A stretch of 64,000 nt of DNA from positions 4,964 through 68,963 of the forward strand of contig CANQKY010000001.1 of NCBI GenBank assembly GCA_947624575.1, read 5' to 3'. The position numbers were made by a program, and so were the translations under genes. Shown here in pieces: positions 4,032 to 25,885 of the stretch. Under the pieces are notes generated by a model. That model saw only the letters and a list, made by a program, of their open reading frames with translations, was not told the DNA's origin and did no database searches. The stretch is from an uncultured Clostridia bacterium. Its GTDB lineage: Bacteria; Bacillota; Clostridia; Oscillospirales; Ruminococcaceae. The first letter of the stretch is position 1; the number at the start of each line of letters is the position of its first letter.

Positions 4032-4161
4032 TAAATCACCTATCAATAGATTTGTTCAACATTTCCGTTTTGTAAATACCAACCTGTAAAGCGGTCAAAT
4101 TCTGTATCATTTAAAAGGAAGGATTCACTGCCATAGTTTCACTGTCATAACCATATTTTGC

Positions 4162-9428: not shown

Positions 9429-9711
9429 AAATTCCCCTTCTTTTATGCTAATGCGATTATTAAAGTATGTTAAAATTCATAATATCGGGTTGATAGCAGG
9501 AGTCGTTGCGCTGTGGATATGTCATCAATGATACTATATATATTATAAGCGATTTTACTTAGAAAAGCAAGAGGGTTGTCGATATTTTGCGTTAAATAAA
9601 ATAAATCTAAACATTTTCATCACAGTTGCTCGTTCGGATTTATGATTCATATCATAGAATGCTCTTTTCCTCGTGATATAAGTCCTATATAATAGAAAAC
9701 CGCAATACTTC

Positions 9712-9805
9712 AAAAACTATCTTCTCATGTTCAAAGTGAATGAATCTGAGAAAACGGTGATAATATACCGCTTTTCTACGGTGCGCGGGATTATTTCACG
9801 CTGCC
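9712..9805 (+). pseudogene. 3'-end fragment of a ParE/RelE-family toxin gene (copy of 32924-33017)
   Basis: About 94 nt aligned by eye with 32924-33017: 4 mismatches and one 1-nt deletion (ccgcttttct vs ccgttttttct) that breaks the frame. No 5' part. Confidence 0.8.
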
Positions 9806-9848
9806 TTTTTTCTGTGCCGTATAGGGTTCAGACAATATGAGCTTCATG

Positions 9849-9922
9849 ACCCGCCAAATGCGCCAGTTGTATGATCGTGTGTTCGCTGTAAAAGCGATCC
9901 GCAATATGCAACAGCTTTCCGT
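9849..9922 (-). pseudogene. 3'-end fragment of an abiEi-like antitoxin gene (inverted copy of 47973-48046)
   Basis: The 74-nt minus-strand sequence matches 47973-48046 with 5 mismatches. Encodes KLLHIADRFYSEHTIIQLAHLAG, identical to the C-terminus of the 47393 gene product. Confidence 0.8.
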
Positions 9923-9933
9923 ATATACGAAAA

Positions 9934-10989
9934 TTACTCTTTATTATTTGCAGTTGATGTTCCCAGATCCAGTTCGCATGAGTTATCATATACAGATGCG
10001 GTTTCTTGCGAACTATAAGTAACACCCGATGGTTTTTCTTTTGTGAGCCAATCGTTTTTCCATGCCCAAAAGGAGAAAAGCAAAGATGCAATTAAAATTA
10101 AATCAACAATCCAGATCGGTGAATAAAACTTCCATGCTGAAAAAATTTTTTTAGGAATCTTTGAACCTCTCAATAGATAGAGGATTAGGCAAATAATGAG
10201 ATTAAATGCAACTATTCCAACTAGAGAAATAATTCCAATTAATCTATATATTGATATGGCATTAATATTTTCTAAAACAGAAGATGAAAACGAAAAAACA
10301 CCAGCAAATGTTAAAACTATTGATGCAAAGATCCCAAGAACTGAAACTGTCGAGTTATAAATACCATTTCTAAGATTCTCTATGCTCTTCTCGCTTTCAT
10401 TGATTTTTGATTCAAGCATATACATAGTTTTAAACAAGCCGGTGCTTTGCTCTTTACCTTCCTTGCCAACCTTATTTTCTAATGCAGATACCTGATTTGT
10501 GGCTATATCTATTTTTTGTTTCAAGCCTGTATATAGAATATGAGTATAATTCCCCATACTTTCATATGATGATATACGGTCATAAATACAGCTCCAGACA
10601 TAAAAACACCAATTATATATTATGTCAAAATAAGGAGAATTTTGCGGGATGTTTGCAATTGTTCGAGAAAAATAGCTTTTTGAAACGGATTGATCAAATT
10701 CATCAAACTTGGACAACAAACGTTTCGGATCAGACTTAAAGTAATTATCAACTTTGTTCAAAATGGTGTCTACAACTCTAACAGCAAGTTGACTACTAGA
10801 TATAGGATTTGCTGACAAACATTTCAAATTAGCATTATGAAATTTTTTCATAGCACTAAAAGATTGCGGCTTATTATATTCTTTACTAAAGGCAGAATCA
10901 GCTAATTCACCGATATCAAAAGACTCTAAAAAACAATCTATTAATTGTTCTGTCAGTTCGATTATTTGGTTTTCAATTCTTATGTTCAT
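9934..10989 (-). CDS. Hypothetical protein with soluble N-terminal domain and four C-terminal TM helices (candidate toxin/effector of a two-gene module)
   Basis: 351-aa ORF. Its start is 2 nt after the stop of the upstream gene. C-terminal hydrophobic segments include VLGIFASIVLTFAGVF, IGIISLVGIVAFNLIICLILYLL and IWIVDLILIASLLFSFWAW. Confidence 0.55.
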   Translation of the reverse strand: MNIRIENQIIELTEQLIDCFLESFDIGELADSAFSKEYNKPQSFSAMKKFHNANLKCLSANPISSSQLAVRVVDTILNKVDNYFKSDPKRLLSKFDEFDQSVSKSYFSRTIANIPQNSPYFDIIYNWCFYVWSCIYDRISSYESMGNYTHILYTGLKQKIDIATNQVSALENKVGKEGKEQSTGLFKTMYMLESKINESEKSIENLRNGIYNSTVSVLGIFASIVLTFAGVFSFSSSVLENINAISIYRLIGIISLVGIVAFNLIICLILYLLRGSKIPKKIFSAWKFYSPIWIVDLILIASLLFSFWAWKNDWLTKEKPSGVTYSSQETASVYDNSCELDLGTSTANNKE

Positions 10990-10991
10990 AA

Positions 10992-11804
10992 TTACTGACC
11001 ATAATATGTATATTCAAAAATAAATTTTACAATAGCATTGGAGCTTAGAGAAGATTCTAACGGTTTAGCAAAAAAGGTCCTTACTTTTTCTTCGTCGATA
11101 AAACGCTTATTGTATTTTTCATCGGATTCTTGTGATTGAATATTTTCTTTGAACAAATCCATGGTGCCGCCAATCGCTTTTGCTTGATACATGCCAAAGT
11201 TGAGAAAAACATCTTTTAATAGCTTCTTTATATTTTCATTGAAAACATCTTCAACCTTATATGTATCTGGAATTGGAGCGTCGCTATTTAATGATGTTAT
11301 TGATATTGTTTGAGGGCTTTCTGGCAACAAACTATCTTGGGCATCATTGGTGCCAGTAATGATATTGTCCATGGGAAAACTTTCTGGATGGGCAGAAAGC
11401 ACGCAGTAGCCGACACCACAGCTATTAATAAAAATGGGATATTCTCTAAATAGCTTGTCCTTATTTTTGATTGCAACTAAGTCGGCAATTGCTAATAATT
11501 TTTCGACTTTTAATCTATTGCAAGTATACTTATTTTTAGTCTCAAAAAATAAACTGGTTAGGTACTTAGCTGCGTCAAATATATTTATATTATCAGCCAC
11601 TTTATCGCTTCTTTCTGTATGAACTATGGTAGGATGTGGGTGGTCAAAAATTACGCCAGACAAGATGTCCACATTTTCCCCGAAATCCCCCATACAAATT
11701 ATTGTAGAGGATTTTGCATCAGTTTTCAAGTAGATTTTCAAAAAAATACGCCTCTTTTCGACACACTTTTTGCATTTTAATTGCTTTTGACAATTTTTTT
11801 GCAT
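10992..11804 (-). CDS. Panacea (DUF4065/SocA)-like protein, candidate antitoxin
   Basis: The segment AAKYLTSLFFETKNKYTCNRLKVEKLLAIADLVAIKNKDKLFREYPIF resembles the N-terminal LKLQKLLY core of DUF4065. The true start is probably internal (TTG or ATG near MGDFGENV) because the -10 box overlaps the first ATG. Confidence 0.4.
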   Translation of the reverse strand: MQKNCQKQLKCKKCVEKRRIFLKIYLKTDAKSSTIICMGDFGENVDILSGVIFDHPHPTIVHTERSDKVADNINIFDAAKYLTSLFFETKNKYTCNRLKVEKLLAIADLVAIKNKDKLFREYPIFINSCGVGYCVLSAHPESFPMDNIITGTNDAQDSLLPESPQTISITSLNSDAPIPDTYKVEDVFNENIKKLLKDVFLNFGMYQAKAIGGTMDLFKENIQSQESDEKYNKRFIDEEKVRTFFAKPLESSLSSNAIVKFIFEYTYYGQ

Positions 11805-11807
11805 TAC

Positions 11808-11816
11808 ATTATAGCA
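11808..11816 (-). promoter_or_regulatory. Extended -10 promoter element for the 10992/9934 operon
   Basis: Minus strand TGCTATAAT. No good -35. The same 12-mer GTGCTATAATGT occurs in the promoter at 6955-6966. Confidence 0.4.
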
Positions 11817-11958
11817 CGTTTGGGGCGAGAATTTTGTTGAAAGCTGATAGAACTATAGAAAAAGCTGTCCATTCATTTAAATAGACAGCTTTTTAAGCTG
11901 CTTTTGTATATCAAATAATTTAATATTTTATGGAGATACAAGCAATTGAAGGAAGCCC

Positions 11959-11996
11959 AGGCGGTGAGATGTAACATCTTACCGCCTAAATTTTTG
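11959..11996 (+). terminator. Intrinsic terminator-like hairpin
   Basis: AGGCGGTGAGAT-GTAAC-ATCTTACCGCCT followed by AAATTTTT. A second hairpin AAAAAGCTGTC...GACAGCTTTTT lies at 11859-11894. Confidence 0.5.
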
Positions 11997-12060
11997 CCGT
12001 TAGCGAATGCAACACATGAGCGGCACGAAAGAAAAATTTTTTCCTCTTGTGCCTAATCTC

Positions 12061-12089
12061 TTTACAAAACAGAATGATGAGGATATACT
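12061..12089 (+). promoter_or_regulatory. Candidate promoter of the RiPP operon
   Basis: TTTACA, 17-nt spacer, TATACT. About 350 nt upstream of the first rSAM start. Confidence 0.4.
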
Positions 12090-12437
12090 ACAGACAAAAC
12101 AGTATGATTAACACAATGATTAAGCAGCCATCATACGCTGAATTTTGGCATTGTATCAGCCATTTTAGAAGCACAGTCTATAATAATACTTATCCTTTTT
12201 GGGTGGGAGATATGTCCGAAATTGTTAAAGTTGATTACTTTTTGGTATCAGAAAAGGGAAATAGCTCGCCGTATTATTTCGATACAGAGTCCATTTTTTT
12301 ACTGTAAGAGTAATAATGTGTTTCGTATGGAAAAAGTTGTGCTCCAGTATATGGTGGTGAGAGTGGCTGAGCGGGCAAATTCAAGGTGTGCATATATTAT
12401 AGGCATCATAGAAAAACTGACAGAAAGGATTTGCGGT

Positions 12438-13865
12438 ATGATTTCGGATATACAGTATTGCTGTTTAAAAGAAGATTATGTTCTTTGGCAGACTCAGGAA
12501 CGACTATATCTGTGTGAAATTAAAACAGGGCGGCCAGTGGCAGCACTTTCTACTGGGGTAACGCCTTTGTTGCTGACCTTAAGTGGTAATCGTCTTCTTG
12601 GGGACATCTTGGAGCATTGGGCTAAAACACAAAAAATACCTTTACAAGAACTGACAGAGAAAGTACAGCATCTTTTGAAATCCCTTGCACCATTTCTCAT
12701 GTTTTCTGATAACCTTATTTCGGATGCAACTTGTCCTAAACTGATAATAGGGGATTTTCCATATCATCCTGTTGCCGTAAAAAGTGAAAAACCTCTCTAT
12801 GTGACTTTCAACATAACCGATCGTTGTAGTCGAAATTGTATCTATTGTTACATGGATTCCATTTACACCAAACAGATGGACAACTCCCATCGTTTTCTTT
12901 CGGTAGAACGGTTTGCAGATGTTTTAAAAGAGTGCAAGGATATTGGTGTACAAGCTATTGAAGTCGGTGGTGGAGATCCTTTGAATCATCCTCAAATTTT
13001 AGAATATGTCCGTCTGTTAAGTCAAAGCAAAATTCCAAATGTGCTAATTTCCACTAAGAAATATGTGCAGGAAGAATTGGCTCTACGCTTCAAAGAGGCA
13101 GGGTTGCGGGAAATCCAAATCAGTTTGGATTCGGCAGATAAAGAGATCGCCGATATTTTGATGGGAGAGCGTGGAGCATATGAGGAGGTGGTGAAGACCA
13201 TTCACAACTTTCGAAAAGCAGGCATAGATGTAAAAGTAAATGCGGTGTTGACTTCGTTAAATTGCACTAATTTCAGCAATTTGATCCAACTACTGGAGTC
13301 CATGGGTGTTTCTACTCTATCTGCCAATTATTATGGCGCATCCTGCGGACGCCATGTTGAAAGTTTATTTCCTAAAGTGGAGCAGCTTCAGGAACTGAAA
13401 AAACAGGTAGATGGAATCACTCCTTCTTTGAAAACGCTCCATTTAAGAATGCCGGATTTTCAAGAAACATTTTACGAAAACAAATGGAGTAGTGATCGGC
13501 AGATCCGCAGTTATTATCGCAGTTATTGTGGCGCCATGAAGACTCGAATTTTGGTAAATCCAGATGGTACAGTGGGGTATTGTGCCTATATCACGCAAGA
13601 TCTTTCCCGTAAAAATGGACTGATATTTGGGAATTTACATACTCAAAGCTTAATGGAGATTTGGCAATCGCCGTCAGTGGAAGATATCCTGACCCCAAAT
13701 GTACAAAAATTCCGCGGAACTCTGTGTGCCGATTGTAGGGATTTTGAAAAGTGTTATCCAAAACGTTGCTTTTTGCGGTCAATCCTGCAATATGACACTC
13801 CTTTTGAAAAAGATCCGGATTGTCGCTATTGGAACGATATGCATTGTAAAGTAATAAGAGATTGA
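12438..13865 (+). CDS. Radical SAM/SPASM peptide maturase with N-terminal PqqD-like RRE (rSAM-1)
   Basis: CxxxCxxC cluster motif in DRCSRNCIYCY. An N-terminal ~85-aa wHTH-like segment (LKEDYVLWQTQERLYLCEIKTGRPVAALSTGVTPLLLTL...) sits upstream of the core. C-terminal SPASM pattern YCGAMKTRILVNPDGTVGYC ... CADCRDFEKCYPKRC. Start at ATG 12438 (GAAAGGA RBS) preferred over track start 12222. Confidence 0.8.
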   Translation: MISDIQYCCLKEDYVLWQTQERLYLCEIKTGRPVAALSTGVTPLLLTLSGNRLLGDILEHWAKTQKIPLQELTEKVQHLLKSLAPFLMFSDNLISDATCPKLIIGDFPYHPVAVKSEKPLYVTFNITDRCSRNCIYCYMDSIYTKQMDNSHRFLSVERFADVLKECKDIGVQAIEVGGGDPLNHPQILEYVRLLSQSKIPNVLISTKKYVQEELALRFKEAGLREIQISLDSADKEIADILMGERGAYEEVVKTIHNFRKAGIDVKVNAVLTSLNCTNFSNLIQLLESMGVSTLSANYYGASCGRHVESLFPKVEQLQELKKQVDGITPSLKTLHLRMPDFQETFYENKWSSDRQIRSYYRSYCGAMKTRILVNPDGTVGYCAYITQDLSRKNGLIFGNLHTQSLMEIWQSPSVEDILTPNVQKFRGTLCADCRDFEKCYPKRCFLRSILQYDTPFEKDPDCRYWNDMHCKVIRD

Positions 13866-13880
13866 AACAGGAGCGAGCAA

Positions 13881-15011
13881 ATGAGAAGTGGAACACCAAT
13901 ATATATTTTGCCTATGCCGACACAGGTAGTTTATGCGCTTTATGTAGCTTTTTGCGGTATACAATCTGAGCCCCCTGGGCAAAATGGCTTGGCGCATTTA
14001 TATGAACATTTAAGTATTCGAAAATATCTTTTGCAACTCGGCTGCAATTTAGATGAAGGATGTATGATTAACGGATTTACCAAACGGCAATATACTGGGT
14101 ATGTGTTTCAGGCGGATAAACGGTATGCGCCACAAGTCCTTGAGGGGATTGGCCGACTGGAAAATATGTCTGCAAGGGATGGATTTTCACCTAAGGATGT
14201 GAGCAATGAAAAGAATAAAATCCGTAGAGAAAACAGTCAGCGAGATACAATTGAAACACGCTTAATAGATAAACTGATGCGAACAATTTTTTTAAAAGAA
14301 AGTTATGGGAATTCTATTTTCTGCTCGGAAAAATGTCTAGACAATCTTGGAAAAGGAGCTCTGACAAATTATGCTATCTTGGTAGAACAGGCATCTAGAG
14401 GGTTGTTTTTGGTAGGAAATCCTGCTTTTTTCCCAAAAGAAACAGCATATGGAAAAGAAGTTTGGCAGCAAAATATTCCCCAATTATGTTTTGCCGAGCC
14501 TAAACCGCCCCATATGTGGGAAAAAGGGAAACACTATGCTGTTGGTTATGTGCAAGAACCATTTGACGGGTTTCGGGAATTTTTGGTTGCTTCGCTTTCC
14601 TCTTCTTTCCTAAAAATGGCCCTTTTAAGATGGCACGGAATCCATGTGGGCGGAGAAGTAAAATTATACATCGATCAGGCAGTATCGATCTTTTGGATGA
14701 CTGATACTCAAATTGACGATATACAGAACAAAACCATACAATGGACAACCCTTTGCAGAAACGTATTGAATGATTCCCGCTTTTTTGAAGAGTTTGAAAA
14801 GGCAAAAAAGCTATATCTATATCAACTTTTAAGAACGATTGATACACCGGAATATTTGGCAATGTATCTTTTTAAAACTGCCTGTCTGCTACACACACTT
14901 CCAGAGGTAGATAAAATATTGGTAGATGTGCATTCCGTTACGGCACAGGAGGTGCGGTCAATGATTGCACGAATGTTAGAAAAACAGATTGTATATAGCG
15001 TTGTTTTATAA
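13881..15011 (+). CDS. M16-family (insulinase/pitrilysin-like) zinc protease, candidate leader peptidase
   Basis: Inverted zinc motif HxxEH = HLYEH in GLAHLYEHLS. CAGGAG RBS. Sits between the two rSAM genes. Confidence 0.65.
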   Translation: MRSGTPIYILPMPTQVVYALYVAFCGIQSEPPGQNGLAHLYEHLSIRKYLLQLGCNLDEGCMINGFTKRQYTGYVFQADKRYAPQVLEGIGRLENMSARDGFSPKDVSNEKNKIRRENSQRDTIETRLIDKLMRTIFLKESYGNSIFCSEKCLDNLGKGALTNYAILVEQASRGLFLVGNPAFFPKETAYGKEVWQQNIPQLCFAEPKPPHMWEKGKHYAVGYVQEPFDGFREFLVASLSSSFLKMALLRWHGIHVGGEVKLYIDQAVSIFWMTDTQIDDIQNKTIQWTTLCRNVLNDSRFFEEFEKAKKLYLYQLLRTIDTPEYLAMYLFKTACLLHTLPEVDKILVDVHSVTAQEVRSMIARMLEKQIVYSVVL

Positions 15012-15026
15012 AAGAGGTAAATAATT

Positions 15027-16427
15027 ATGAATATGAAAATTAAGTATATCATCTGCGAGCGAGCAAATGTGGAATTACGAAATGGAAAAGCATTTTTGCA
15101 GTGTAGCGAAAAGTATGATCAGAGCAAAAACTACCGTGTAACTAGAATGGGCTGCTTGATTTTGGCGCAATTTGACGGAAGGCGCACATTAGGAGACATT
15201 ATTTCTCATATTAGTGAACTTACGGCTCTTACCCCAGAAAAAGCCATGAAGATGGTAGAAAAAGTAGCCGATATGTTTTCTTACTATATCGTAGAGGCAA
15301 AAGGGCGCACGCGAGATTTCCCCTCTGAAAAAACTATTTGTTCCTCAGTAAAGACCTCTACATATGATGAACTGAAATTAGAACCCAGTATATTTCCCTC
15401 TACTATCTACTATTCTGCGACAAATCGTTGCGGATTCTATTGTCGATACTGTTATAGGGATTCCAACAGCAACCGTGAGGAAACTTATTATTTGACAGCA
15501 ACGCGGTGGCAAGAACTTTTAAAAGAAGCGGAAGGAACCAACTGCGGTAGTTTTGATATCGGCGGTGGCGAACCATTCTTTCGCAAGGATATAATGGATA
15601 TTTTGGGCGTAGCAAAGAAAGCAGGGCTAAAAACCAAGATATCTACCAAACTTGGATTGTCGGAAGAAATTATGCGTGGATTACGCGAAACACAATTAGA
15701 TTCTCTGCAAGTTAGTTTGGATTCCTGCGATAAGGCGGTCTGTGCTTTTTTGACTGGTCAGACATACAGCTTTCAAATGGCAGAAAAAACCATCGACAAT
15801 GCCAATCGTCTAGGGCAAAAGATTCATGTGAATTGTGTTGTAAATAAATACAACATCGAAGGAATACCGAAGTTGATCGAATTTTTGGAAAAAAAGAAAG
15901 TTCCTACTTTGGGACTTACCAAGTATATCGCTTCCTGTGGACGAAACCAGTCCGATTTGTATGCCACTGAACAGCAATTTGATCAGTTAGACGAGTATAT
16001 TTATCAATATCGAAACAATAACCCCGCAATAGAGATTGATTATCAGTATTTACTGGGACGAACATTTGAAAAAATGAAGCAAACCGATCTAACTGCGCTA
16101 CGGGTCTTATGTGGCGGCGGAAAAGATCAATTGTATGTTCGTCATGACGGGGTCGTGGGGTTTTGTGATGCACTGTTGTATGATGATCATATTTTACTGG
16201 GTGATCTGAGCCGTCAAAGTATTTCCGAAGTATGGCGTTCTAGTGAAGTAAAAAAATGGAACACACCCGATCCAGAACCGTTTAAAAACACCATTTGTGG
16301 AGACTGTCGCCTTTTCTACAAGTGTTTCCCGTATCGCTGCTACAAGCGATCTATTATTGCTTATAACACGCCCTATGCTTTGGATCCATTTTGCCCAAGA
16401 GGTGAAAAATTATTATGTGTGATGTGA
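15027..16427 (+). CDS. Radical SAM/SPASM peptide maturase with N-terminal PqqD-like RRE (rSAM-2)
   Basis: Cluster motif in NRCGFYCRYCY. N-terminal RRE-like segment (VELRNGKAFLQCSEKYDQSKNYRVTRMGCLILAQFDGRRTLGDII). SPASM tail LCGGGKDQLYVRHDGVVGFC ... CGDCRLFYKCFPYRC. Confidence 0.8.
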   Translation: MNMKIKYIICERANVELRNGKAFLQCSEKYDQSKNYRVTRMGCLILAQFDGRRTLGDIISHISELTALTPEKAMKMVEKVADMFSYYIVEAKGRTRDFPSEKTICSSVKTSTYDELKLEPSIFPSTIYYSATNRCGFYCRYCYRDSNSNREETYYLTATRWQELLKEAEGTNCGSFDIGGGEPFFRKDIMDILGVAKKAGLKTKISTKLGLSEEIMRGLRETQLDSLQVSLDSCDKAVCAFLTGQTYSFQMAEKTIDNANRLGQKIHVNCVVNKYNIEGIPKLIEFLEKKKVPTLGLTKYIASCGRNQSDLYATEQQFDQLDEYIYQYRNNNPAIEIDYQYLLGRTFEKMKQTDLTALRVLCGGGKDQLYVRHDGVVGFCDALLYDDHILLGDLSRQSISEVWRSSEVKKWNTPDPEPFKNTICGDCRLFYKCFPYRCYKRSIIAYNTPYALDPFCPRGEKLLCVM

Positions 16428-17449
16428 TATATAAAGCGCCAATGGAAAAATACGTAATTATGTTGCCCCGGGAACAATCTGCTACTCGATTTTATATTCG
16501 AACACCTTACGGTGCAATCTGCGTATTCACCAATTTAGAAAAATTGGCGGAGGTGTTGGTGCCACCATCTATGATTCAAACTGATCTTACAGGAATGTCT
16601 CCCGTGGCAAATTTGTGTGCTTTTTTTGATCCCCATGCTATAGTGAATCAAGAAATTCGGGATGGTAAATTTTTAGAGCGATCTGACCCGAGGTATATTC
16701 CCAATGTGGAAAACACCTCATATCATCGTGGAGATACAGAATTTTTAGTTTATCAATATCCATTTAAAGGGATCCTCTGCCTGCTCTTAGATATTCTATG
16801 CGGTAGTGTGACTGCGGCAAGAGAGGAAAGTTTAATCTTGTTGGCCCGCATGGCACTAAAAAAATTAATTGTCCGTCTGTATGCAACAGATGGATATTAT
16901 CCTCTCCATGCGGCAGCGGTGGGAACAGGTAATAGCGCTTATGTCTTTGTGGCAGGAGGACGTGCGGGAAAATCGACTATTTTTATGAAACTCTTAGAGT
17001 ATGGATACATTCCTATAAATGATGATCTAGTGTTTATTAAAGAAACAAAAGATGGATTAAACTGTACCGGGTTCCCTATTATTCCCAGCGTGCGGAAGGA
17101 AAGTGCTGTTTTTTTGAACAGTAAGCTTGAAAATATACCATCTCTACGTGGCTTCGAAGGAGAATATTATGTAAATGTGTGGCATTCAGAATTTGATCCA
17201 TACAAAACATATCGTTTGGTGCGGTTGTATTATCCAAAATATGGATACAAAGAGTTTTGTGTTTTTCCGCCTAAGCCTGATTTGATGAAGAAACGATTGA
17301 TAAAATCCTTTTTTACACATCAGCAGGTGGCTATCGACAAACAAGAGCAGGCTGTAAATGTGTTAAACAAACTACTCCATATCTCGGCTTTGCAGATACA
17401 AAACACAGATGATATGGATGCTTTTGCGAAGGGTTTTCCGTTTGTTTAG
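16415..17449 (+). CDS. HPr kinase/phosphorylase-like P-loop protein (RiPP-associated, ScmC/PadeK-like class)
   Basis: P-loop GGRAGKSTIFMKLLEYGYIPINDDLVFI resembles the HprK C-terminal domain. Overlaps the rSAM-2 stop (translational coupling). Confidence 0.6.
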   Translation: MCDVIYKAPMEKYVIMLPREQSATRFYIRTPYGAICVFTNLEKLAEVLVPPSMIQTDLTGMSPVANLCAFFDPHAIVNQEIRDGKFLERSDPRYIPNVENTSYHRGDTEFLVYQYPFKGILCLLLDILCGSVTAAREESLILLARMALKKLIVRLYATDGYYPLHAAAVGTGNSAYVFVAGGRAGKSTIFMKLLEYGYIPINDDLVFIKETKDGLNCTGFPIIPSVRKESAVFLNSKLENIPSLRGFEGEYYVNVWHSEFDPYKTYRLVRLYYPKYGYKEFCVFPPKPDLMKKRLIKSFFTHQQVAIDKQEQAVNVLNKLLHISALQIQNTDDMDAFAKGFPFV

Positions 17450-17450
17450 T

Positions 17451-17472
17451 TCCAAATGAGATGTTTGATCAC
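17451..17472. repeat. Left arm of the inverted repeat bracketing the precursor gene array
   Basis: TCCAAATGAGATGTTTGATCAC. Its reverse complement occurs at 17997-18019 with one extra T. Confidence 0.95.
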
Positions 17473-17492
17473 CTGAAAAAAGGAGGCATAGC

Positions 17493-17630
17493 GTGATAGA
17501 CATAGAAGATATGATGAGTTTAGAGGATATGCAGGAAATCATCGAACTTTCCATGAATGATTTTGATGATATGGAAATTTTCTGTGTGTGTACAGGGACC
17601 TGTGTAACACTACGTTGTGTTCACGGGTAA
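17493..17630 (+). CDS. RiPP precursor peptide 1 (45 aa)
   Basis: AGGAGG RBS 6 nt upstream of GTG 17493 (alternative ATG 17511). Translation (M)IDIEDMMSLEDMQEIIELSMNDFDDMEIFCVCTGTCVTLRCVHG. Shares the DDMEIFCxCTGTCVTLRC block with two downstream ORFs despite synonymous codon divergence. Confidence 0.75.
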   Translation: MIDIEDMMSLEDMQEIIELSMNDFDDMEIFCVCTGTCVTLRCVHG

Positions 17631-17667
17631 TATTACTTAACAGACGCTAAAAAAGGAGGTATGGCCT

Positions 17668-17805
17668 ATGGAAGACATGCTTTTGAGCAAAGAGGAGTTG
17701 CAAGAACTATTTTCTGTCAACGCTAACGATCTGGATGACATGGAAATCTTTTGCTATTGTACGGGTACTTGCGTCACTCTTCGTTGCACAACTGGCAACA
17801 ACTAA
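17668..17805 (+). CDS. RiPP precursor peptide 2 (45 aa)
   Basis: AGGAGG RBS 8 nt upstream of ATG. Translation MEDMLLSKEELQELFSVNANDLDDMEIFCYCTGTCVTLRCTTGNN. Confidence 0.8.
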   Translation: MEDMLLSKEELQELFSVNANDLDDMEIFCYCTGTCVTLRCTTGNN

Positions 17806-17829
17806 TCGATAATCGAAAGGAGAATAGCA

Positions 17830-17964
17830 ATGAAAGATAACACGGAAATGACGGTAGAAGAAATGACTGCATTGCAATCACTACTGGTGAATGACTTTGA
17901 AGACATGGAAATCTTTTGCTATTGTACGGGTACTTGCGTCACTCTTCGTTGCGGTGTTAATTAA
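17830..17964 (+). CDS. RiPP precursor peptide 3 (44 aa)
   Basis: AAGGAGA RBS 6 nt upstream of ATG. Translation MKDNTEMTVEEMTALQSLLVNDFEDMEIFCYCTGTCVTLRCGVN. The 51-nt stretch 17902-17952 is identical to 17737-17787. Confidence 0.8.
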   Translation: MKDNTEMTVEEMTALQSLLVNDFEDMEIFCYCTGTCVTLRCGVN

Positions 17965-17996
17965 TCAATAATATATTGCAATTCTAGTCAACAACA

Positions 17997-18019
17997 GTGA
18001 TCAAACATCTCATTTTGGA
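17997..18019. repeat. Right arm of the inverted repeat bracketing the precursor gene array
   Basis: GTGATCAAACATCTCATTTTGGA, about 30 nt upstream of the ABC transporter RBS. Confidence 0.95.
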
Positions 18020-18052
18020 TATTTTCTTTGTAAAAATCGGAGGTAATGTTTT

Positions 18053-19870
18053 ATGCATCGCAACAGAAACAGTTCTTCATATAGGTCTAGGAAGAATATC
18101 AGATTTATGCTTTTTCATTTGTGGAAATGTTCGCCTTCGCGGGTGATTTGGTCTTTTGTCACCGCACTTTTCGGAAATGCTATCGAGATCGGCATAAGTG
18201 TATATCTTTTTCGCTATATCATAAACGGCATTCAGGCCGGATATTCTTTTGCGAGGCTGTTTTTAGTCACTTCGGCGGTTATGGGTATCGCCTTGCTTAT
18301 GCTCTTCTTTTTGGATTGGTACAACAACGTTTACATTCCTCGTTCTGATTTAAAAATAAGCAAATATTTTGATACTTTGCTGTTTCAAAAGGCTCGGCAG
18401 ATCGATCTTGAATACTTCGATAAGACGGAATTTTACAATCAATACACAAAAGCGGTACAAGAAAGCTCCAAAAGAGCCATCGGCGTGCTGAACGATCTTT
18501 CTTCTGTGTTTTCTGCCGTCACAGTGCTGTTCGGGTTGGGAACGATTCTTTTATCCATGAATCCGATTTTGATCGCATTTACATTTATGCCAATCGTGAT
18601 ATCGCTGCCACTCAGTGTGCTGCGTAATAAACTTAATTTCAAATTTCAGCAGGAAACAACGCCGGAAAACCGAAAAATAGAATATTACAAACGGTTGCTC
18701 TATCAAAAAGAATATGCCAAAGAGATCAAGCTGACAAAAATCTTTCCGGTTTTGTTGTCTAAATATGTCACCACTAACGAGAACATGAGCAAACTTTCGG
18801 CAAAATTCGGCGTTCGTCGTGCGGGCTTAGGAATGTTGGAAACGTTTAATCAGGTGGCTGTAGTTATGTATGCTACCTATGTCTATTTAATATACAGCAT
18901 TACGGTGTCTAAAAGACTAATGATCGGGGATTTTGTGGCTTTATATAATGCCGTTCGCAGCGCGGAATATTCGCTTCGCCGTATAATTGAGATTGTGCCG
19001 CGCCTTAACGAACATAGCCTTTTTATCCAAAATGTGCGTGATTTTCTTAACTTGCAGCCTCATATTATTGAACCGGAAAATCCCATACCGATCTCAGACG
19101 GAGACTTTGATTTGTCCATTGAAGCCGTACAGTTTACATATGACGATCGAAGCCGCTTGATCTTACGGGACATCTGTATGCGAATTGAACAGAAACAAAA
19201 GATAGCCATTGTTGGACGAAACGGCGCGGGGAAATCCACTCTTGTCAAAACGATCATGCGGTTATACGAACCCAAGCAGGGATGCGTGTATTTCGGCGGC
19301 AAGGATTACAGGAATTATTCGCTTGAAGAATACCACGCATTGTTTGGAACGGTGTTTCAAGATTTCGCTTTATATCATATAAGCGTGGCAGAAAACGTGG
19401 CTATGGATTTTGTCACGCAGGAAAATGAGCCGCACATCCGCAAAGTGCTGAAAAAAGTGGGGCTTTACGATAAGATTATGGCAGAAGGCAAAGATATCTA
19501 TCACGACGTTTCAAAAGAGTTTTCCGAAGACGGCATAGTATTCTCCGGCGGCGAAGAACAAAAGCTCGCTATCGCAAGGGCGTTTGTTCACCCCAACAAG
19601 ATATTGGTTTTTGACGAGGCTTCAAGCGCGCTCGATCCCATTTCGGAATATGAAATGAACCATATGATTTTGGATATGGCAAAGGATAAAACGGTTATAT
19701 TGATATCTCATCGCCTGTCATCCACACGCGATGCGGACAGGATCTATTATTTGGAAAACGGTCAGATTCTCGAAGAGGGCACCCACGAGGAACTCATGGC
19801 GCAAAACGGCGGCTATGCGCGTATGTTCAGTTTGCAGGCGGAACAGTATCTGGGTAAAGAAAATGGCTAA
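18053..19870 (+). CDS. ABC exporter, fused permease/ATPase (no C39 peptidase domain)
   Basis: Six-TM N-terminal half. Walker A GRNGAGKST, signature FSGGEEQK, Walker B ILVFDEASSALD. Confidence 0.85.
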   Translation: MHRNRNSSSYRSRKNIRFMLFHLWKCSPSRVIWSFVTALFGNAIEIGISVYLFRYIINGIQAGYSFARLFLVTSAVMGIALLMLFFLDWYNNVYIPRSDLKISKYFDTLLFQKARQIDLEYFDKTEFYNQYTKAVQESSKRAIGVLNDLSSVFSAVTVLFGLGTILLSMNPILIAFTFMPIVISLPLSVLRNKLNFKFQQETTPENRKIEYYKRLLYQKEYAKEIKLTKIFPVLLSKYVTTNENMSKLSAKFGVRRAGLGMLETFNQVAVVMYATYVYLIYSITVSKRLMIGDFVALYNAVRSAEYSLRRIIEIVPRLNEHSLFIQNVRDFLNLQPHIIEPENPIPISDGDFDLSIEAVQFTYDDRSRLILRDICMRIEQKQKIAIVGRNGAGKSTLVKTIMRLYEPKQGCVYFGGKDYRNYSLEEYHALFGTVFQDFALYHISVAENVAMDFVTQENEPHIRKVLKKVGLYDKIMAEGKDIYHDVSKEFSEDGIVFSGGEEQKLAIARAFVHPNKILVFDEASSALDPISEYEMNHMILDMAKDKTVILISHRLSSTRDADRIYYLENGQILEEGTHEELMAQNGGYARMFSLQAEQYLGKENG

Positions 19871-20093
19871 ATATCGCTCCTTATGAAATTTTTCGGTTCT
19901 AAATGTGTTTATTTATATGGATGATTTAAAAACCATACCGACACCTTGAAAAAACAGGTCATCGAAGTAAGGAACTGGATGACTTTGACTCAATTGATGA
20001 GAGTATTTGACGGTATTCACAAGATTGTACGCACCGTTTACATAGTATTACCAAAGCCGCATTTATATCAAACTATCAAGATCGGGACATTCT

Positions 20094-20123
20094 AGAATTT
20101 AATGTCCATCGACATTAAATTCT
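20094..20123. promoter_or_regulatory. Perfect 13-bp-arm palindrome upstream of the nucleotidyltransferase gene
   Basis: AGAATTTAATGTC-CATC-GACATTAAATTCT. Confidence 0.5.
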
Positions 20124-20208
20124 TAAGTCTATGTATCTTTCACAAGCAGGAAAATACAAAATCAGTTTTTCCAATCAAACTGTAATGAGCAGAGGAGCGA
20201 AAAGGCTT

Positions 20209-21726
20209 ATGACATGCGATGAGTATATTTTTAAATATTTGATTAGTAATTTTTCGACTCTTGAATCAATTAAAATGTTAAGAGAAAATTCGCTTTACAT
20301 TAAATTTGCAGATAAATTTGCAAAAAAAGACAACAAAAAACTTATAGAAATGAATCGTTTATTTAACTCATTTAATATTACTGCAGCACGCAACATCCTT
20401 GGCGATATTGAAACAATGCATACTGAGTATATTATTTTTAAAGGTTTTGTGCTTTCACAACGTTTATATGGGAGCCCAGATCAAAGGATATGGGGCGACA
20501 TTGATTTTTATGTTAAATCACAGTATTTTGATAAGGTCTATTTTTACTTACTTAAAAAAGGGTATGAATTGACTTATAAAGATGGGTTATCTAATCCACA
20601 TCATGTAGGATTGAAAAAAGGAGGAAAACTACTAGAACTTCATAGAACTATTTTTCATCCTAAAGTTGAAATCAACGAAGATTTCTTAAGAAAAAATCTG
20701 CAACATTATATAATTTCAGACTCCAAAAATACAACATTTGAAGTTACAACATTTAATGAAACCGCTACCATCTTGCACCTAATTTATCATTTATATATGG
20801 ATACATATTTTGCCTCATTTAATTTGAAGTCGATATTTACAAGCAGAAAATTGCCAAAAGCACGTCGGTTTTTATATCGTGCTTATGAAATAGCTCTTTT
20901 TTCAGAAAAGTATTATTGCAAAATAAATTGGACAGATATTCAAAATGATTTGACACATCAGAAATTTCGTATATTCTTCAAAAAAATGATATTAGATATT
21001 ATTGAGATTTTTCCAAATGCATTCCCGGAAAGCTTTTTGAATACTGTATTTAGGCTTAATTATATTGGCGATGAAAGGGATGAATTATATAGGTGTTTTA
21101 TGAAAGCCAATGACAAGGAAACAAGTAAAAATACACTATTATGCGATTATATCAATAATAAATGGCTCGCACGTAGGGAAAAGAACATATCAAAAAAGGT
21201 TGGCGACAGTATAACACTTAATAAGGCATCAAAAAATGGAAGCGAATATGATTTGAGTTGCTTTATAAGCACGGAAAAATCAGCGGAAGGATTGAATGTA
21301 GTTTTTAAGGTGTCAAATGACGATTTCTGCATTAGTGAAAGAAATGACTATAATACAATGATAAGTGACGGAGTTCATTTGTTACTTTGTGGAACTGAAG
21401 AATACTCTTACAATAGCATATTCTTCTTTCCAAAAGAAATCGACGGGAATATCGAGGTTATACCTTATGATGCACTTAACAATGAGACTTTGAGTGACGA
21501 TTTAATCAAGGCTGAATTTACAAAAACTGAAAATGAGTATTGTATTACTGCCGGATTCAGCAATGAGTTTTTACAAAAAAATCATCTAAATTTGTATTTA
21601 TATTTGGGACTAGTTATATCTGATTGTAGTAGCCATACACATTATCGAAAAAACAGCTTAATTCTTTCAGAGGAAGACTCGCAGTGGTATAATCCTATAT
21701 ATTTTGCAAAGTTTGATATGGCATAA
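20209..21726 (+). CDS. NTP_transf_5-type nucleotidyltransferase family protein with long C-terminal extension
   Basis: FKGFVLSQRLYGSPDQRIWGDIDFYV matches the core of the uncharacterised nucleotidyltransferase family found with PqqD/HprK-like genes. The likely start is ATG 20209 (MTCDEY); the track ORF begins at 20131. Confidence 0.55.
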   Translation: MTCDEYIFKYLISNFSTLESIKMLRENSLYIKFADKFAKKDNKKLIEMNRLFNSFNITAARNILGDIETMHTEYIIFKGFVLSQRLYGSPDQRIWGDIDFYVKSQYFDKVYFYLLKKGYELTYKDGLSNPHHVGLKKGGKLLELHRTIFHPKVEINEDFLRKNLQHYIISDSKNTTFEVTTFNETATILHLIYHLYMDTYFASFNLKSIFTSRKLPKARRFLYRAYEIALFSEKYYCKINWTDIQNDLTHQKFRIFFKKMILDIIEIFPNAFPESFLNTVFRLNYIGDERDELYRCFMKANDKETSKNTLLCDYINNKWLARREKNISKKVGDSITLNKASKNGSEYDLSCFISTEKSAEGLNVVFKVSNDDFCISERNDYNTMISDGVHLLLCGTEEYSYNSIFFFPKEIDGNIEVIPYDALNNETLSDDLIKAEFTKTENEYCITAGFSNEFLQKNHLNLYLYLGLVISDCSSHTHYRKNSLILSEEDSQWYNPIYFAKFDMA

Positions 21727-21776
21727 ATCTGAAAGAAAAAAGTTCTATTCTTGAAACATATTAGAGGAAGAAGCGC

Positions 21777-22928
21777 ATGCCACATTGCAATAAAAAAATG
21801 CTATCGTTTTTTCTGACAACTAAATGCAACCTATGCTGCGTGTATTGCTATAACGCCACAGAACGTAATGCCCTTGAAGAGCAAAGCGTCTCATTAGAGA
21901 TAACCAAATATGCTATTGATTGGTATTTCGAGAATAACCAAAGTCGCCATATTCGTTTTTATGGTCCGGGTGAGCCTACGCAGGAATTCGCAAAAATGAG
22001 GGAAATTACCGAATATGCGAAGAATCATTCTAATGGCGGAGATAAAGTAACCGTTGAAATTCAGACTAATGGCGTATTCACAGAAGAAGTTCGAAAGTGG
22101 ATTTTGGATAATGTAAATATTGTGTGGATGTCTTTTGATGGTATGAAGGATATTCAAAACAGTAATCGCCCATTAAATCCGAAATACAAATCCATATTCG
22201 ATGAAAGGACTTCTGCGGATATATTAGAGGGCAATGTGAAATGGCTAATTCAAAATACCGGCAAAAGAGATTTAATGGTTGGTGCTCGTGTTACGATTAC
22301 AGATAGCAATATAGACAGACAGAAGGAATTGGTTGATTACTTTTATTCATTGGGGATAAGATATGTTTGGACGAATCCACTTTTTTATTCAGTAGGACAG
22401 GTTCCCGTCAGTGAAGATGAAAGAAAGCGTAAGGATTTTCATTTTGACATGAACAAGTATGTCGATGAGTATCTTCTTGCGTATACTTATGCAAAAGAAA
22501 AAGGTTTATTTTGGGGTAGTTTTTTGACAATAAATTTTGATGGAACAGCTGAACATCATTGTCGTTGCTGTACTCCGATGGAAGCTCCTCACATAACAAC
22601 GGATGGCTATATTTCAGCCTGTGATATGGCACTCAAGGGTTTGGATGCACACCATATGGATTGCTTTATCGTTGCAAAATGGAATGACCATACAAAACAA
22701 TTTGACTGGGATATGGATAAAGTTAGAACACTCTATGAGCGAAAATCCACCAATCTGTCGGATTGTTATAATTGCCCTGTCAAACTTCACTGTGGCGGGT
22801 GTTGTCTTGGCGAAACTATGAATGAATTTGGTTGTCTCGATAAACATAATTTTACAAAATGTAACGCAATTAGAAGACTTTATAAAGCACTTGGGCCTTG
22901 CAGGCCATACACTTATTTACATCCTTAA
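21777..22928 (+). CDS. Radical SAM/SPASM enzyme without RRE (rSAM-3)
   Basis: Cluster motif CNLCCVYC within FFLTTKCNLCCVYCYN. C-terminal Cys-rich SPASM-like HHCRCCTPMEAPHITTDGYISAC ... CYNCPVKLHCGGCC. Confidence 0.75.
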   Translation: MPHCNKKMLSFFLTTKCNLCCVYCYNATERNALEEQSVSLEITKYAIDWYFENNQSRHIRFYGPGEPTQEFAKMREITEYAKNHSNGGDKVTVEIQTNGVFTEEVRKWILDNVNIVWMSFDGMKDIQNSNRPLNPKYKSIFDERTSADILEGNVKWLIQNTGKRDLMVGARVTITDSNIDRQKELVDYFYSLGIRYVWTNPLFYSVGQVPVSEDERKRKDFHFDMNKYVDEYLLAYTYAKEKGLFWGSFLTINFDGTAEHHCRCCTPMEAPHITTDGYISACDMALKGLDAHHMDCFIVAKWNDHTKQFDWDMDKVRTLYERKSTNLSDCYNCPVKLHCGGCCLGETMNEFGCLDKHNFTKCNAIRRLYKALGPCRPYTYLHP

Positions 22929-22959
22929 ACTAAAAATCTTTAAAAGGAGATTAATAATT

Positions 22960-23712
22960 ATGAAAGTTTATGTCGTTAATGGTGCTGCTCATGAGGGCTT
23001 TGGTGAAGCTACCGCGCGAACTTTAATTGAAGAGGGATGCAAGGTTATAGGATTGTACGAAAAAGAAGACGAAAAAAATGTAGTAAAATTAAAACAAGAA
23101 TTTTCTGATTCTCAATTTGAATGCATTTGCATTGATTTGTTTGATTTTAACAAGTTAAAATTAACTCTTGCACATATTGACAGCTCAATTGATGGATTTG
23201 TTAATGCTGCTTTTACTTTTGACATGGAAAATGTTGATGATTTCAACTATGATTTAGCCGAAAAGCTTTTCAGAGCAAATTACCATGCCCCAATGCTTAT
23301 GGCGATTGAATTAAAAAAGAAAATGAGAACCGGTTCCTCAATTGTTTTTGTCACTAGTACCGAATCGGATAGGGGTTCATTCGGCGGGATTTCTTATGCG
23401 GCTTCTAAAGCGGCAATTCATAATATGATTAAATCTCTTGCATGCAATTGGGGCAAATCTAGTCGAATTAGAGTTAATGCTGTTGCAGCAGGCTGGATCG
23501 GCGGCGAAATGGACACAGACGGTCCTTTTGAGGTTTCCATGAACATTACCCCGTTGGGAAGGTTGGGACATGCTGATGAAATTGCAAATGCGGTGTCATT
23601 TCTTTTATCGGATAAAGCGAGCTTTATAAATGCTCAAGTTACCTATGTGGATGGGGGCTACCTTGCCGTTGATGATATAGCTAAATATGAGTTTGAAGTT
23701 TCTAAGAAATAA
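22960..23712 (+). CDS. Short-chain dehydrogenase/reductase (SDR)
   Basis: 250 aa from ATG 22960 (AAAGGAGA RBS). Catalytic YAASKAAIHNM (YxxxK). The N-terminal nucleotide-binding turn VVNGAAHEGFG is atypical. Confidence 0.7.
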   Translation: MKVYVVNGAAHEGFGEATARTLIEEGCKVIGLYEKEDEKNVVKLKQEFSDSQFECICIDLFDFNKLKLTLAHIDSSIDGFVNAAFTFDMENVDDFNYDLAEKLFRANYHAPMLMAIELKKKMRTGSSIVFVTSTESDRGSFGGISYAASKAAIHNMIKSLACNWGKSSRIRVNAVAAGWIGGEMDTDGPFEVSMNITPLGRLGHADEIANAVSFLLSDKASFINAQVTYVDGGYLAVDDIAKYEFEVSKK

Positions 23713-23728
23713 TTGATGTGAGTGAGAT

Positions 23729-24775
23729 ATGAAAAGTAAATATGATCAACGACAAAAGAAATGGGCATGGTATGATACGCTTCTGCTAATATTTGCAGTA
23801 GCTTCCCCTGTGATATCAGTTCTTTGCTCGATATTTATTCCCGGAACAACAGTAGATGGCCGAATTGCCATTATAGTCGGTGGATTTACGATACAAATAG
23901 TCTTGGCTTCAATTCAAATTAAACTTAGTATTAATCCAATTTTAGAAATGGTGGAAAAAAATAGGGATGCTTTATTGGATATTGAGAAAACTGTACAGAT
24001 AGTTGATGAAACAAAAAAAATCAATGAGACAAATAATAAACATCGAATTGATTATTTTCAAAGACGTTTAGACGAATTTGAAAGAATGCTGCAGCACTGT
24101 GTTCCTCCGAATTCAACATCGGAATTGTTAGACGTTAGGGTATATTACAATGAACTATATAATATGGCAGAGCAACTCTTACATGATAAAAACCCATCAA
24201 AGTGTTTTGTTTGGGCAATGACTGGATTTTCTGAAATGGAATGGTCTGACAATGGATGGGAGCAGGAGTGGACGAGACGGCTCAAGTGTTTGTCTGCCAG
24301 AAAGATAATTACAAAGAGAGTATGCTTGATCAGTAGAGAAATAATTAGTTTTTTGAAATGTACAGATAATAGTTGGTTCACTCCCATTTTACATACCGCA
24401 GCTAATGCTGCCCCGCTTCCTACAAATGCAGCTCGGTTTAAAAGTTTTGCAGATTATTTAAAAGATAATAATGGTGAATTAACTGAAAGTTATTTTCTGT
24501 ATCAGGACAATGCTGCATATAGTGAGCTAATTAGTGAAAAAGGTTTTTTTGGAATAACTTTATCCACTGGTGAAAAATATTTGACTAAAGGAGAAGCTCT
24601 TACAGTAGCTGATGGATTAACAGGTGAATATGTTTTTGATGAAAAACTTATTGAGAAAATATTTAACTTGCATGCACGTATATGCATACCAGAGAATGAC
24701 TTGTTGAAGGAGGTTAATAAGATTGCGTCGGTAGAATGTAGAAATTTTTTGAGACATTATGGAGCTGAAATATAA
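23729..24775 (+). CDS. Hypothetical membrane protein (two N-terminal TM helices; immunity/accessory candidate)
   Basis: 348-aa ORF, 17 nt after the SDR stop. TM segments LLLIFAVASPVISVLCSIFI and IAIIVGGFTIQIVLASIQI. No recognised domain. Confidence 0.5.
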   Translation: MKSKYDQRQKKWAWYDTLLLIFAVASPVISVLCSIFIPGTTVDGRIAIIVGGFTIQIVLASIQIKLSINPILEMVEKNRDALLDIEKTVQIVDETKKINETNNKHRIDYFQRRLDEFERMLQHCVPPNSTSELLDVRVYYNELYNMAEQLLHDKNPSKCFVWAMTGFSEMEWSDNGWEQEWTRRLKCLSARKIITKRVCLISREIISFLKCTDNSWFTPILHTAANAAPLPTNAARFKSFADYLKDNNGELTESYFLYQDNAAYSELISEKGFFGITLSTGEKYLTKGEALTVADGLTGEYVFDEKLIEKIFNLHARICIPENDLLKEVNKIASVECRNFLRHYGAEI

Positions 24776-24910
24776 CAATTAGTAAAGAGGATACACACAG
24801 ATAAATGAAAATGTGGGAAGAGATCACTAAACCATTAATTTTAAATCTGTAAGCTAAGTGGGTTTACATATTTTTATTTACTAAATTGATTTTGAAAAGA
24901 GGTCAGGCTC

Positions 24911-25258
24911 ATGTTAAACTCTAAATCGTTAAAGGGCATTGGATTATTACAATTAGAGATACTTCATCTTATTTCCTTAGGTAAAAAGGAAAGGATCGAA
25001 ATTATTGAAGAACACATTGATGAAGGAAATTTGATCGAATATATTTTTAACAAATATCAAGATGAATTTTCTATTGCATTTGATAATGAAGTGTATGGCA
25101 ACGAAGCCTTAAATCTATATTTTAAAAATTATAGCGGTCATATTCAGGGTAATGAAAGCAGAAAATATGGGATAATGAACGAAGATGATGGATTACTGTT
25201 AATATCCGCTTTAATAAGCGATAAAATCGAACACTCGGCGACCAACTGGACAAATTAA
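24911..25258 (+). CDS. Hypothetical protein
   Basis: 115-aa ORF in the AT-rich island, followed by a hairpin plus T-run near 25272-25317. No recognised domain. Confidence 0.35.
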   Translation: MLNSKSLKGIGLLQLEILHLISLGKKERIEIIEEHIDEGNLIEYIFNKYQDEFSIAFDNEVYGNEALNLYFKNYSGHIQGNESRKYGIMNEDDGLLLISALISDKIEHSATNWTN

Positions 25259-25885
25259 TTTATTAATCGAAAATCGTATCTTTGAATGTCATTCCGAAAG
25301 ATATGATTTTTTATGCTTTCTAACGATTTGTTATAAAATCGAGCCAAAACGCTTCGCCGGAGATAAGAACGGTGAAAAGGACAAATAATGCAAATTTTTG
25401 AATTAAATTAAAACAGAGAACAGAAACACATAGGATTTGAAGTATTGGGTGTGGATGTGTATCAGCACTGTATAAACAGTTTGCGGAATAATTCATTTAT
25501 AAATTTAAATCACATCCGCTTTATTAAAGAACATAAACAGTTGATGTTAGAAAGGCTTCAGATTATAGGAATAAGTTCAGAAATTGTTTTCAAATATCAA
25601 CAGGAAGTATGTCAACCTGCTGAAATACTTTGGAATTTAGCAATGAAATATACAGTGACTTCTAAATAAACAATTAGTTGATGGCATGATCAAACAGATT
25701 GAAAAAATCAGAGATTATGAGGTAAGCATTTTGTCCTCTTTGGTATAATACTTTCGAATGTCACGCCCTATAGTGCGCAGGTAATAATCGGCACTACATT
25801 GGCACTGTTCTGCGCTTGAAGCGTGAAAACGGATATGTTAAAATGAAGATGCTCAAAACTGTATCAGGAGCCGATTGCGGCAACA

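Follow-up and report, generated by a model that had tools for sequence, protein, structure and literature searches.

Pathways for ribosomally synthesised and post-translationally modified peptides (RiPPs) require far more substrate peptide than enzyme, and how this ratio is set where the precursor genes lie in the middle of an operon is, to our knowledge, rarely known. The question is raised by a radical S-adenosylmethionine (rSAM) RiPP locus of an uncultured Clostridia bacterium, in which three small precursor genes, A1, A2 and A3, are placed between the enzyme genes and the gene of an ABC exporter. The locus was studied in a stretch of 64,000 nucleotides (contig CANQKY010000001.1, positions 4,964 to 68,963 of the forward strand), hereafter the window, whose numbering is used unless another contig is named. 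The element in question is an inverted repeat, the two arms of which lie on either side of the precursor array. According to the reading favoured here, to which a probability of about 0.5 is given, the arms would form a long-range duplex in the mRNA, by which the three precursor cistrons would be set off from those of the enzymes and the exporter.

The inverted repeat and its predicted RNA stem

The left arm, TCCAAATGAGATGTTTGATCAC (17451..17472, + strand), and the right arm, GTGATCAAACATCTCATTTTGGA (17997..18019, + strand), were both located by sequence reading, with a repeat finder and by arm searches of the window and the genome; the right arm, which contains a bulge-forming extra T, was also recovered by folding. 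The core of the repeat is complementary at 19 of 19 positions, AAATGAGATGTTTGATCAC at 17454-17472 having its exact reverse complement at 17997-18015, and the two core arms are separated by 524 nt. Outwards, TCC and GGA extend the pairing past the one extra T of the right arm, giving 22 bp with one bulged U. Sequence reading and the repeat finder agreed on the repeat, which is as first described, extra T included.

The left arm is located in the 43-nt spacer between the stop codon of a gene for an HprK-related P-loop protein (HprK-like) and precursor A1. It begins 2 nt past that stop codon (TAG, 17447-17449), exactly as the original prediction had it, and its end is followed after 9 nt by the Shine-Dalgarno sequence of A1 (GGAGG, 17482-17486) and after 21 nt by the A1 start, coinciding with the beginning of the expected A1 30S footprint. 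The right arm occupies part of the 88 nt that separate precursor A3 from the exporter gene, whose Shine-Dalgarno sequence (GGAGG, 18039-18043) lies 19 nt past the arm and whose ATG (18053) lies 33 nt past it; the earlier distance of about 30 nt to the exporter ribosome-binding site (RBS) is corrected accordingly. Both arms are wholly inside the spacers, so neither Shine-Dalgarno sequence is sequestered, and the repeat does bracket the three-precursor array, its arms being confined to the two flanking spacers.

Allowing up to 3 mismatches, the arms matched these two sites alone in the window (two hits were obtained in 0 of 100 shuffles) and likewise in the whole 2.4-Mb genome, where each arm has a single copy. 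A helix of such length between the two spacers was not obtained in 2000 shuffles, and the duplex energy of the arms was not reached in 1000. Both arms were recovered in four independent metagenome assemblies, essentially of the window strain, and the right arm alone in a fifth. All five are collinear and identical in the arms, which rules out an assembly artefact.

The original prediction held that the arms could pair in the mRNA around the three precursor open reading frames (ORFs), leaving a loop of about 520 nt, and the folding calculations agree with it, the predicted stem being dominant. The duplex energy of the two arms alone was -30.8 kcal/mol, the 19-bp core showed a mean pair probability of 0.90 in folded contexts of 0.6, 0.9, 1.5 and 2 kb, and the stem was found alike in the minimum free energy (MFE) and centroid folds. 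With 22 bp and one bulged U, it is a near-regular double-stranded RNA of about two turns and at least ~20 bp, as expected of an RNase III site, and the genome contains an RNase III gene (TIGR02191, 219 bits against a cut-off of 166 bits; C56:14085-14636). Operons subject to selective RNA processing and stabilisation (SRPS) are marked by a 3' stem; here the long-range stem takes that place as the sole strong structure after the array, the post-array spacer of the window being without local structure (z +0.5).

The most likely mode of action, on these models, is that the duplex would act as an RNase III site and that its inner half would then clamp the ends of the excised precursor message. In the polycistronic rSAM operon mRNA the arms would pair as a 22-bp stem with the precursor cistrons in a loop of ~520 nt (a panhandle), and the length and regularity of this stem should suffice for cleavage by RNase III. 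Three pieces would result from a staggered cut, namely the upstream enzyme mRNA, the precursor segment and the downstream exporter mRNA. The ends of the precursor segment would stay paired through the inner ~11 bp (GUUUGAUCAC/GUGAUCAAAC) and would in this way be shielded from 5'-end-dependent and 3' exonucleases, while the enzyme and exporter pieces would be left with exposed ends. From one promoter, precursor message would thereby come to exceed that of the enzymes and of the exporter. Should cleavage not take place, the stem could still act as a 3' (and 5') stabiliser of the precursor segment. That both arms are on one transcript, pair in vivo and are cleaved, and that the resulting pieces differ in stability, is inferred from the sequence.

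Directly 3' of the right arm there is a U-rich tract, TATTTTCTTTGT (18020..18031, + strand), whose function can be judged from its sequence only. Stem and tract together have the geometry of a terminator, yet the loop would span 524 nt. A long-range attenuator may be considered, in which the right arm would pair with the left arm while the polymerase is on the U-tract UAUUUUCUUUGU, causing partial termination before the exporter gene and leaving 3' ends protected by the stem. Besides the tract, the lack of a local hairpin at the post-array place of the window speaks for it, and so does the fact that leaky terminators after structural genes are the usual means of setting the precursor-to-enzyme ratio in RiPP and bacteriocin operons; in microcin C a structure after the precursor gene sets this ratio (PMC4231749). 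The chances of an attenuator are nevertheless slim. The hairpin would have to close within the U-tract pause, which the 524-nt translated loop makes kinetically unlikely, and attenuation would raise the precursor message against the exporter only, not against the upstream enzymes. The right arm also lacks the features of an intrinsic terminator, given its 524-nt loop and AT-rich stem, and the site was not called by the terminator scan. The hairpins that related loci carry after their precursors are likewise without clean U-tracts.

Precursor arrays and RNA structure in related loci

The HprK-like protein has only three relatives in a collection of 5.8 billion proteins. The nearest, 38% identical, belongs to a human-gut lineage represented by contig L007 and eleven further contigs (L007-type). 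Gene order in this type is the same as in the window, with three precursors between the HprK-like and ABC genes, and the precursors of both loci match one-to-one, in the same order, by their C-terminal tails (xxG; xTGNN; GVN). The shared order and matching tails indicate that the array at this site is old. No significant sequence similarity was detected between the spacers of the window and those of L007, and the arms are not recognisably common to both. A weak AT-rich pairing of 4+9 bp in L007 (7514-7528/9636-9650) was first taken as a homologue of the window stem, on account of matching distances to both start codons; as the spacers share no significant similarity the idea was dropped, and the slight variation among the twelve L007-type contigs breaks this pairing instead of compensating it. 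Two further traits of these contigs may be recorded. Every L007-type contig carries a partly degraded IS110-family transposase gene between the array and the ABC gene (L007:8000-9680, L013-L023), and in one of the contigs A2 and A3 are fused into a single precursor (P0010).

The age of the array bears on the second explanation offered in the original prediction, that the repeat is the footprint of a cassette-like insertion. The arms would then be the terminal inverted repeats of a mobile element, such as a miniature inverted-repeat transposable element (MITE), that brought the array. Their size suits this, as terminal inverted repeats of 19-22 bp fit the ends of insertion sequences (IS) and MITEs; the RiPP locus lies within a low-GC island (0.366 against 0.539), and the locus has mobile modules, as is shown by the exporter gene, which occurs alone at 98% identity in a sister species. 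However, the inter-arm content is the ancestral A1-A2-A3 array, which the L007-type locus (38% identical HprK-like protein) has in place without the arms. Each arm is single-copy in the 2.4-Mb genome (up to 3 mismatches), the flanks (...TTTAGT and TATTTTC...) are not duplicated as a target site would be, and the exporter module common to the sister species excludes both arms. The cassette reading was abandoned on these grounds, its likelihood being very remote. A family of dispersed palindromic repeats with the core GGTCCCCCTCCCTTTGACAAGGGAGG (MITE-like or similar to repetitive extragenic palindromes, REP) does occur throughout the genome as inverted pairs 100-150 nt apart, at C4:15261-15423, C49:12841-13005 and ~30 more sites. 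The arms were considered as members of this family and discarded, their sequence being unrelated.

Precursors embedded behind an HprK-like gene were found in three lineages: the window, the L007 type and an L024 type, the latter with a single precursor and an HprK-like protein ~25% identical. Both relatives carry a strong local hairpin after the precursors, of -23.9 kcal/mol (z -7.95) in the L007 type and -25.6 kcal/mol (z -7.96) in the L024 type, which plausibly serves the same purpose as the window stem would. In the L007 type an IS110-family element sits between this hairpin and the exporter.

The L024 type has, in addition, a bracket helix of 15 contiguous pairs (5936-5950 with 6142-6156, -18.6 kcal/mol), running from the final nucleotide of the HprK-like stop codon to the post-precursor spacer. 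Its length is uncommon among dinucleotide shuffles (13 of 3000, P ~0.004). Two of its pairs are G-U, so the helix is confined to the sense strand; the longest antisense helix at this bracket is of 7 bp. In the L007 type, the pre-array spacer and the pre-ABC spacer form an 11-bp GC-rich helix (-19.7 kcal/mol), with P ~0.04 (13 of 300) for the overall duplex by energy. Two loci served as controls: L027, with its precursors at the operon front, showed no bracket (P = 0.2), nor did L026, which has a 166-nt non-coding stretch before its precursors (P = 0.56). L027 is a fourth lineage with two precursor genes at the locus front (302-639) and an HprK-like to ABC gap of 20 nt (3298-6215), from which it follows that the precursor position is not fixed in this family.

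The presence of a bracket or a strong 3' stem where precursors are embedded, its lack in the controls and the unrelated sequences of the arms fit an RNA-level function, in a comparison of three plus two lineages whose statistics are partly post hoc. Scanning contigs of GTDB genomes with precursor and HprK-like alignments yielded no further lineages, and neither did viral contigs and plasmids. A class-level search of 400 genomes returned remote P-loop matches only. A scan of Joint Genome Institute (JGI) metagenomes yielded L024 and the 5'-truncated L025, and look-ups of exact proteins added five contigs of the window strain and four of the L024 type, with identical arms.

Several of these data weigh against the long-range duplex. 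Identity among all assemblies of the window lineage is at least 99.9%, with no variation in the arms, and the four L024-type contigs are identical. The window stem contains neither a G-U pair nor a mismatch and thus looks young rather than long maintained; a recent template-switch copy would give the same perfect appearance. Support from the relatives is statistically modest and partly post hoc: by whole-duplex energy the L024 bracket reaches only P = 0.068, and the MFE fold of L024 pairs the right arm with the start of the ORF, the bracket being retained in the centroid; in the L007 type the bracket has P = 0.39 by helix length, and its right arm (L007:9615-9625) may belong to the IS110-family element inserted there. 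Finally, the stem would have to close in vivo over a 524-nt loop full of translating ribosomes. The first of the two explanations in the original prediction, an RNase III-type processing or stabilisation element, remains the best one. In its favour are the dominant predicted stem, the presence of rnc, the position of the stem at the place of the relatives' hairpins, and bracket pairing in one, perhaps two, distant relatives; against it, its function is read from sequence, close relatives are identical and the spacers of distant ones do not align.

A rival origin of the arms would be that a template-switch or similar event recently copied ~22 nt inversely from one spacer to the other, with no evolved function; such a young repeat might still pair in the mRNA and be cut, by accident. 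The arms are perfect, the sole difference being the length of a homopolymer (A3 against T4), as in a recent copy, and conservation of their sequence is undetectable in the nearest relative. Repeats of this kind are also frequent in the genome, where some two dozen further inverted repeats, all perfect and unique, at least 16 nt long and with arms within 3 kb, were counted against ~2 by chance; this excess implies that repeat-creating processes operate in it. Against an accidental copy stands the placement of the arms, both exactly in two short spacers (43 and 88 nt), clear of both RBSs and enclosing just the precursor array. Of the 24 unique repeats, just 4 have neither arm within a long ORF, and the two others among these that reach at least 19 nt enclose large ORFs, one with a tyrosine-recombinase match and one IS-like. 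Moreover, the window stem stands in for the strong local hairpin of the relatives, and the independent L024 lineage has a bracket helix of its own. An unselected young repeat is considered rather unlikely, though it is the strongest of the rival readings.

The long-range duplex may be extended to the family as a whole: panhandle mRNA would be a conserved device of these rare rSAM RiPP loci, in which lineage-specific spacers pair wherever promoterless precursors are embedded in the operon, RNase III excises the precursor segment and the ends remain clamped. This extension is offered tentatively, as possible though doubtful. If true, it would represent a general and so far undescribed way for RiPP operons to make precursor exceed enzyme.

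Possible inversion of the segment, and the surrounding operon

Inverted repeats of 15-30 bp around a few hundred base pairs are the standard anatomy of invertons, and the arms of the window correspond to it in length, perfection and spacing; their perfection would also fit recombinational homogenisation. A site-specific recombinase could flip the 524-bp segment, so that the precursors would be read antisense and production would be off with the exporter still expressed. The genome encodes several small serine recombinases as well as tyrosine recombinases, and at least one classical-looking inverton candidate stands beside a recombinase on another contig. This candidate is a perfect inverted repeat of 19 nt with its arms 238 bp apart (C34:3330-3348/3587-3605), ~100 nt downstream of a tyrosine-recombinase match in a 288-aa open frame (C34:2758-3237). 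Tyrosine recombinase genes enclosed by repeats of 21-23 nt were observed at C21:10287/11740 and C17:3012/4487.

At the locus itself, however, the window and the four other assemblies with both arms show one orientation, with no contig break at an arm; at 2-3x coverage these assemblies report the majority orientation only, which would hide a flipped minority. The window contig has no serine recombinase (no Resolvase-family match), and its only tyrosine recombinase (Phage_integrase) is ~80 kb off. The arms are unlike every other inverted repeat in the genome, and the segment is without a convincing outward promoter or alternative ORF that would make the flipped state functional. An inverton is thus held to be improbable. 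If the segment did flip as DNA, it would constitute a phase switch for the production of antibiotic peptides, relevant to gut microbial ecology.

The long-range duplex presupposes a polycistronic message, and the arrangement of the genes is consistent with one. Upstream of the stem there are genes for an rSAM/SPASM protein (12222-13865, + strand), an M16 peptidase (13881-15011, + strand), a second rSAM/SPASM protein, rSAM-2 (15027-16427, + strand), and the HprK-related P-loop protein (16415..17449, + strand), the last enzyme gene before the stem, whose start overlaps the rSAM-2 stop. Between the arms follow, all on the + strand, the Cys-rich precursors A1 (17493..17630; 45 aa, GTG start, ending in ...DDMEIFCVCTGTCVTLRCVHG), A2 (17668..17805; 45 aa, ending in ...CYCTGTCVTLRCTTGNN) and A3 (17830..17964; 44 aa, ending in ...CYCTGTCVTLRCGVN). 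The ABC exporter gene (18053..19870, + strand) is the first past the stem. From 12222 to 19870 all genes point the same way, the gaps between them measuring 15 to 88 nt; beyond the exporter a 260-nt gap is followed by genes for an NTP_transf_5 protein, a third rSAM enzyme and a short-chain dehydrogenase/reductase (SDR). A terminator-like hairpin (11959-11987) and, after it, a promoter-like site (12061-12089) lie ahead of the first gene of the operon. No consensus promoter was found on the + strand within 16726-17785, no terminator was called between the flanks of the arms, and no Rfam family was matched within 11800-20300.

The low-GC island mentioned above comprises the RiPP locus (window 9000-25800; 0.366 against 0.539 for the genome), and on account of this composition the whole locus was probably acquired horizontally. 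Within the array, the core-coding parts of A2 and A3 (17734-17787 and 17899-17952) are 98% identical over 54 nt and the leaders differ, a pattern suggestive of gene conversion between A2 and A3.

An AT-rich palindrome (13+4+13, at 20094-20123), inside which one metagenome contig stops, lies in the 260-nt gap ahead of the NTP_transf_5 gene. The possibility that the arms are operators related to this palindrome was rejected, as they have no sequence in common; an 8-mer common to an arm and the terminator-like hairpin at 11959-11987 is within chance.

The exporter copy in the sister species of the same genus (G001) is located on its contig C20 (L006), where positions 9414-11278 equal window 18033-19898 at 98.2% nucleotide identity. 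The copy includes the RBS and stands as an orphan in unrelated surroundings of higher GC, with a sigma-factor-like gene upstream and dispersed palindromic repeats downstream. To judge by its sequence, the exporter is apparently a gene for export or immunity that was transferred recently. The common module begins 14 nt past the right arm and contains neither arm. In one metagenome assembly of the window strain (L009), a cluster of single-nucleotide polymorphisms at 18045-18090 partly agrees with the exporter allele of G001.

Comparison with known systems

A literature search found no stem around a whole precursor array in an rSAM RiPP operon, in agreement with the original prediction, which had seen no such arrangement described. 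The class of mechanism is already established: in Firmicutes, RNase III cuts duplexes that distant segments form within one mRNA (PMC11780869). If the stem of the window excises and clamps the precursor message, it would provide a compact, portable part for higher peptide yield in heterologous hosts and, in addition, a marker for the ends of those precursor genes that gene callers overlook.

Selective RNA processing and stabilisation is known in Clostridia from the cip-cel operon of Clostridium cellulolyticum (PMC4423207, PMC8219983), and the as-48ABC bacteriocin mRNA is processed into pieces with differing half-life that set stoichiometry, according to the passage of PMC3942455 that cites Fernandez et al. 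2008. These systems are alike to the proposed one in that a single promoter is used and stoichiometry is set post-transcriptionally by stems beside the cistron that has to be in excess; SRPS-like local 3' hairpins follow the precursors in the relatives of the window locus. They differ in that cip-cel and as-48ABC have local 3' stem-loops, whereas here the 5' partner lies upstream of the whole array and one helix would guard both ends.

A closer likeness in geometry is offered by the processing stalks of 16S and 23S rRNA (PMC6582327), in which distant leader and trailer sequences pair and enclose an RNA that is released from its polycistronic precursor when the stem is cut. In the window, unlike the stalks, the enclosed RNA is a translated three-gene mRNA of ~0.5 kb and the helix is a single one of 22 bp. 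Invertons resemble the repeat in arm length, perfection and spacing; they differ in that here there is no adjacent recombinase, the assemblies show a single orientation, and the segment holds whole genes instead of a promoter.

The most similar system is found in Bacillus subtilis, where mRNA segments more than 100 nt apart form duplexes that RNase III cuts (Taggart et al., Nucleic Acids Research (NAR) 2025, PMC11780869). Both cases involve an mRNA of Firmicute type, a regular duplex of RNase III length (predicted in the window), arms hundreds of nucleotides apart and an RNase III gene. In B. subtilis cleavage was mapped experimentally in housekeeping mRNAs, whereas the present duplex is predicted from sequence. 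If the long-range duplex proposed here is real, it would give a clear physiological purpose to these recently mapped RNase III duplexes of Firmicute mRNAs. In contrast to the B. subtilis duplexes, the arms of the window delimit a set of small genes, and a cut would excise a defined segment of several cistrons.

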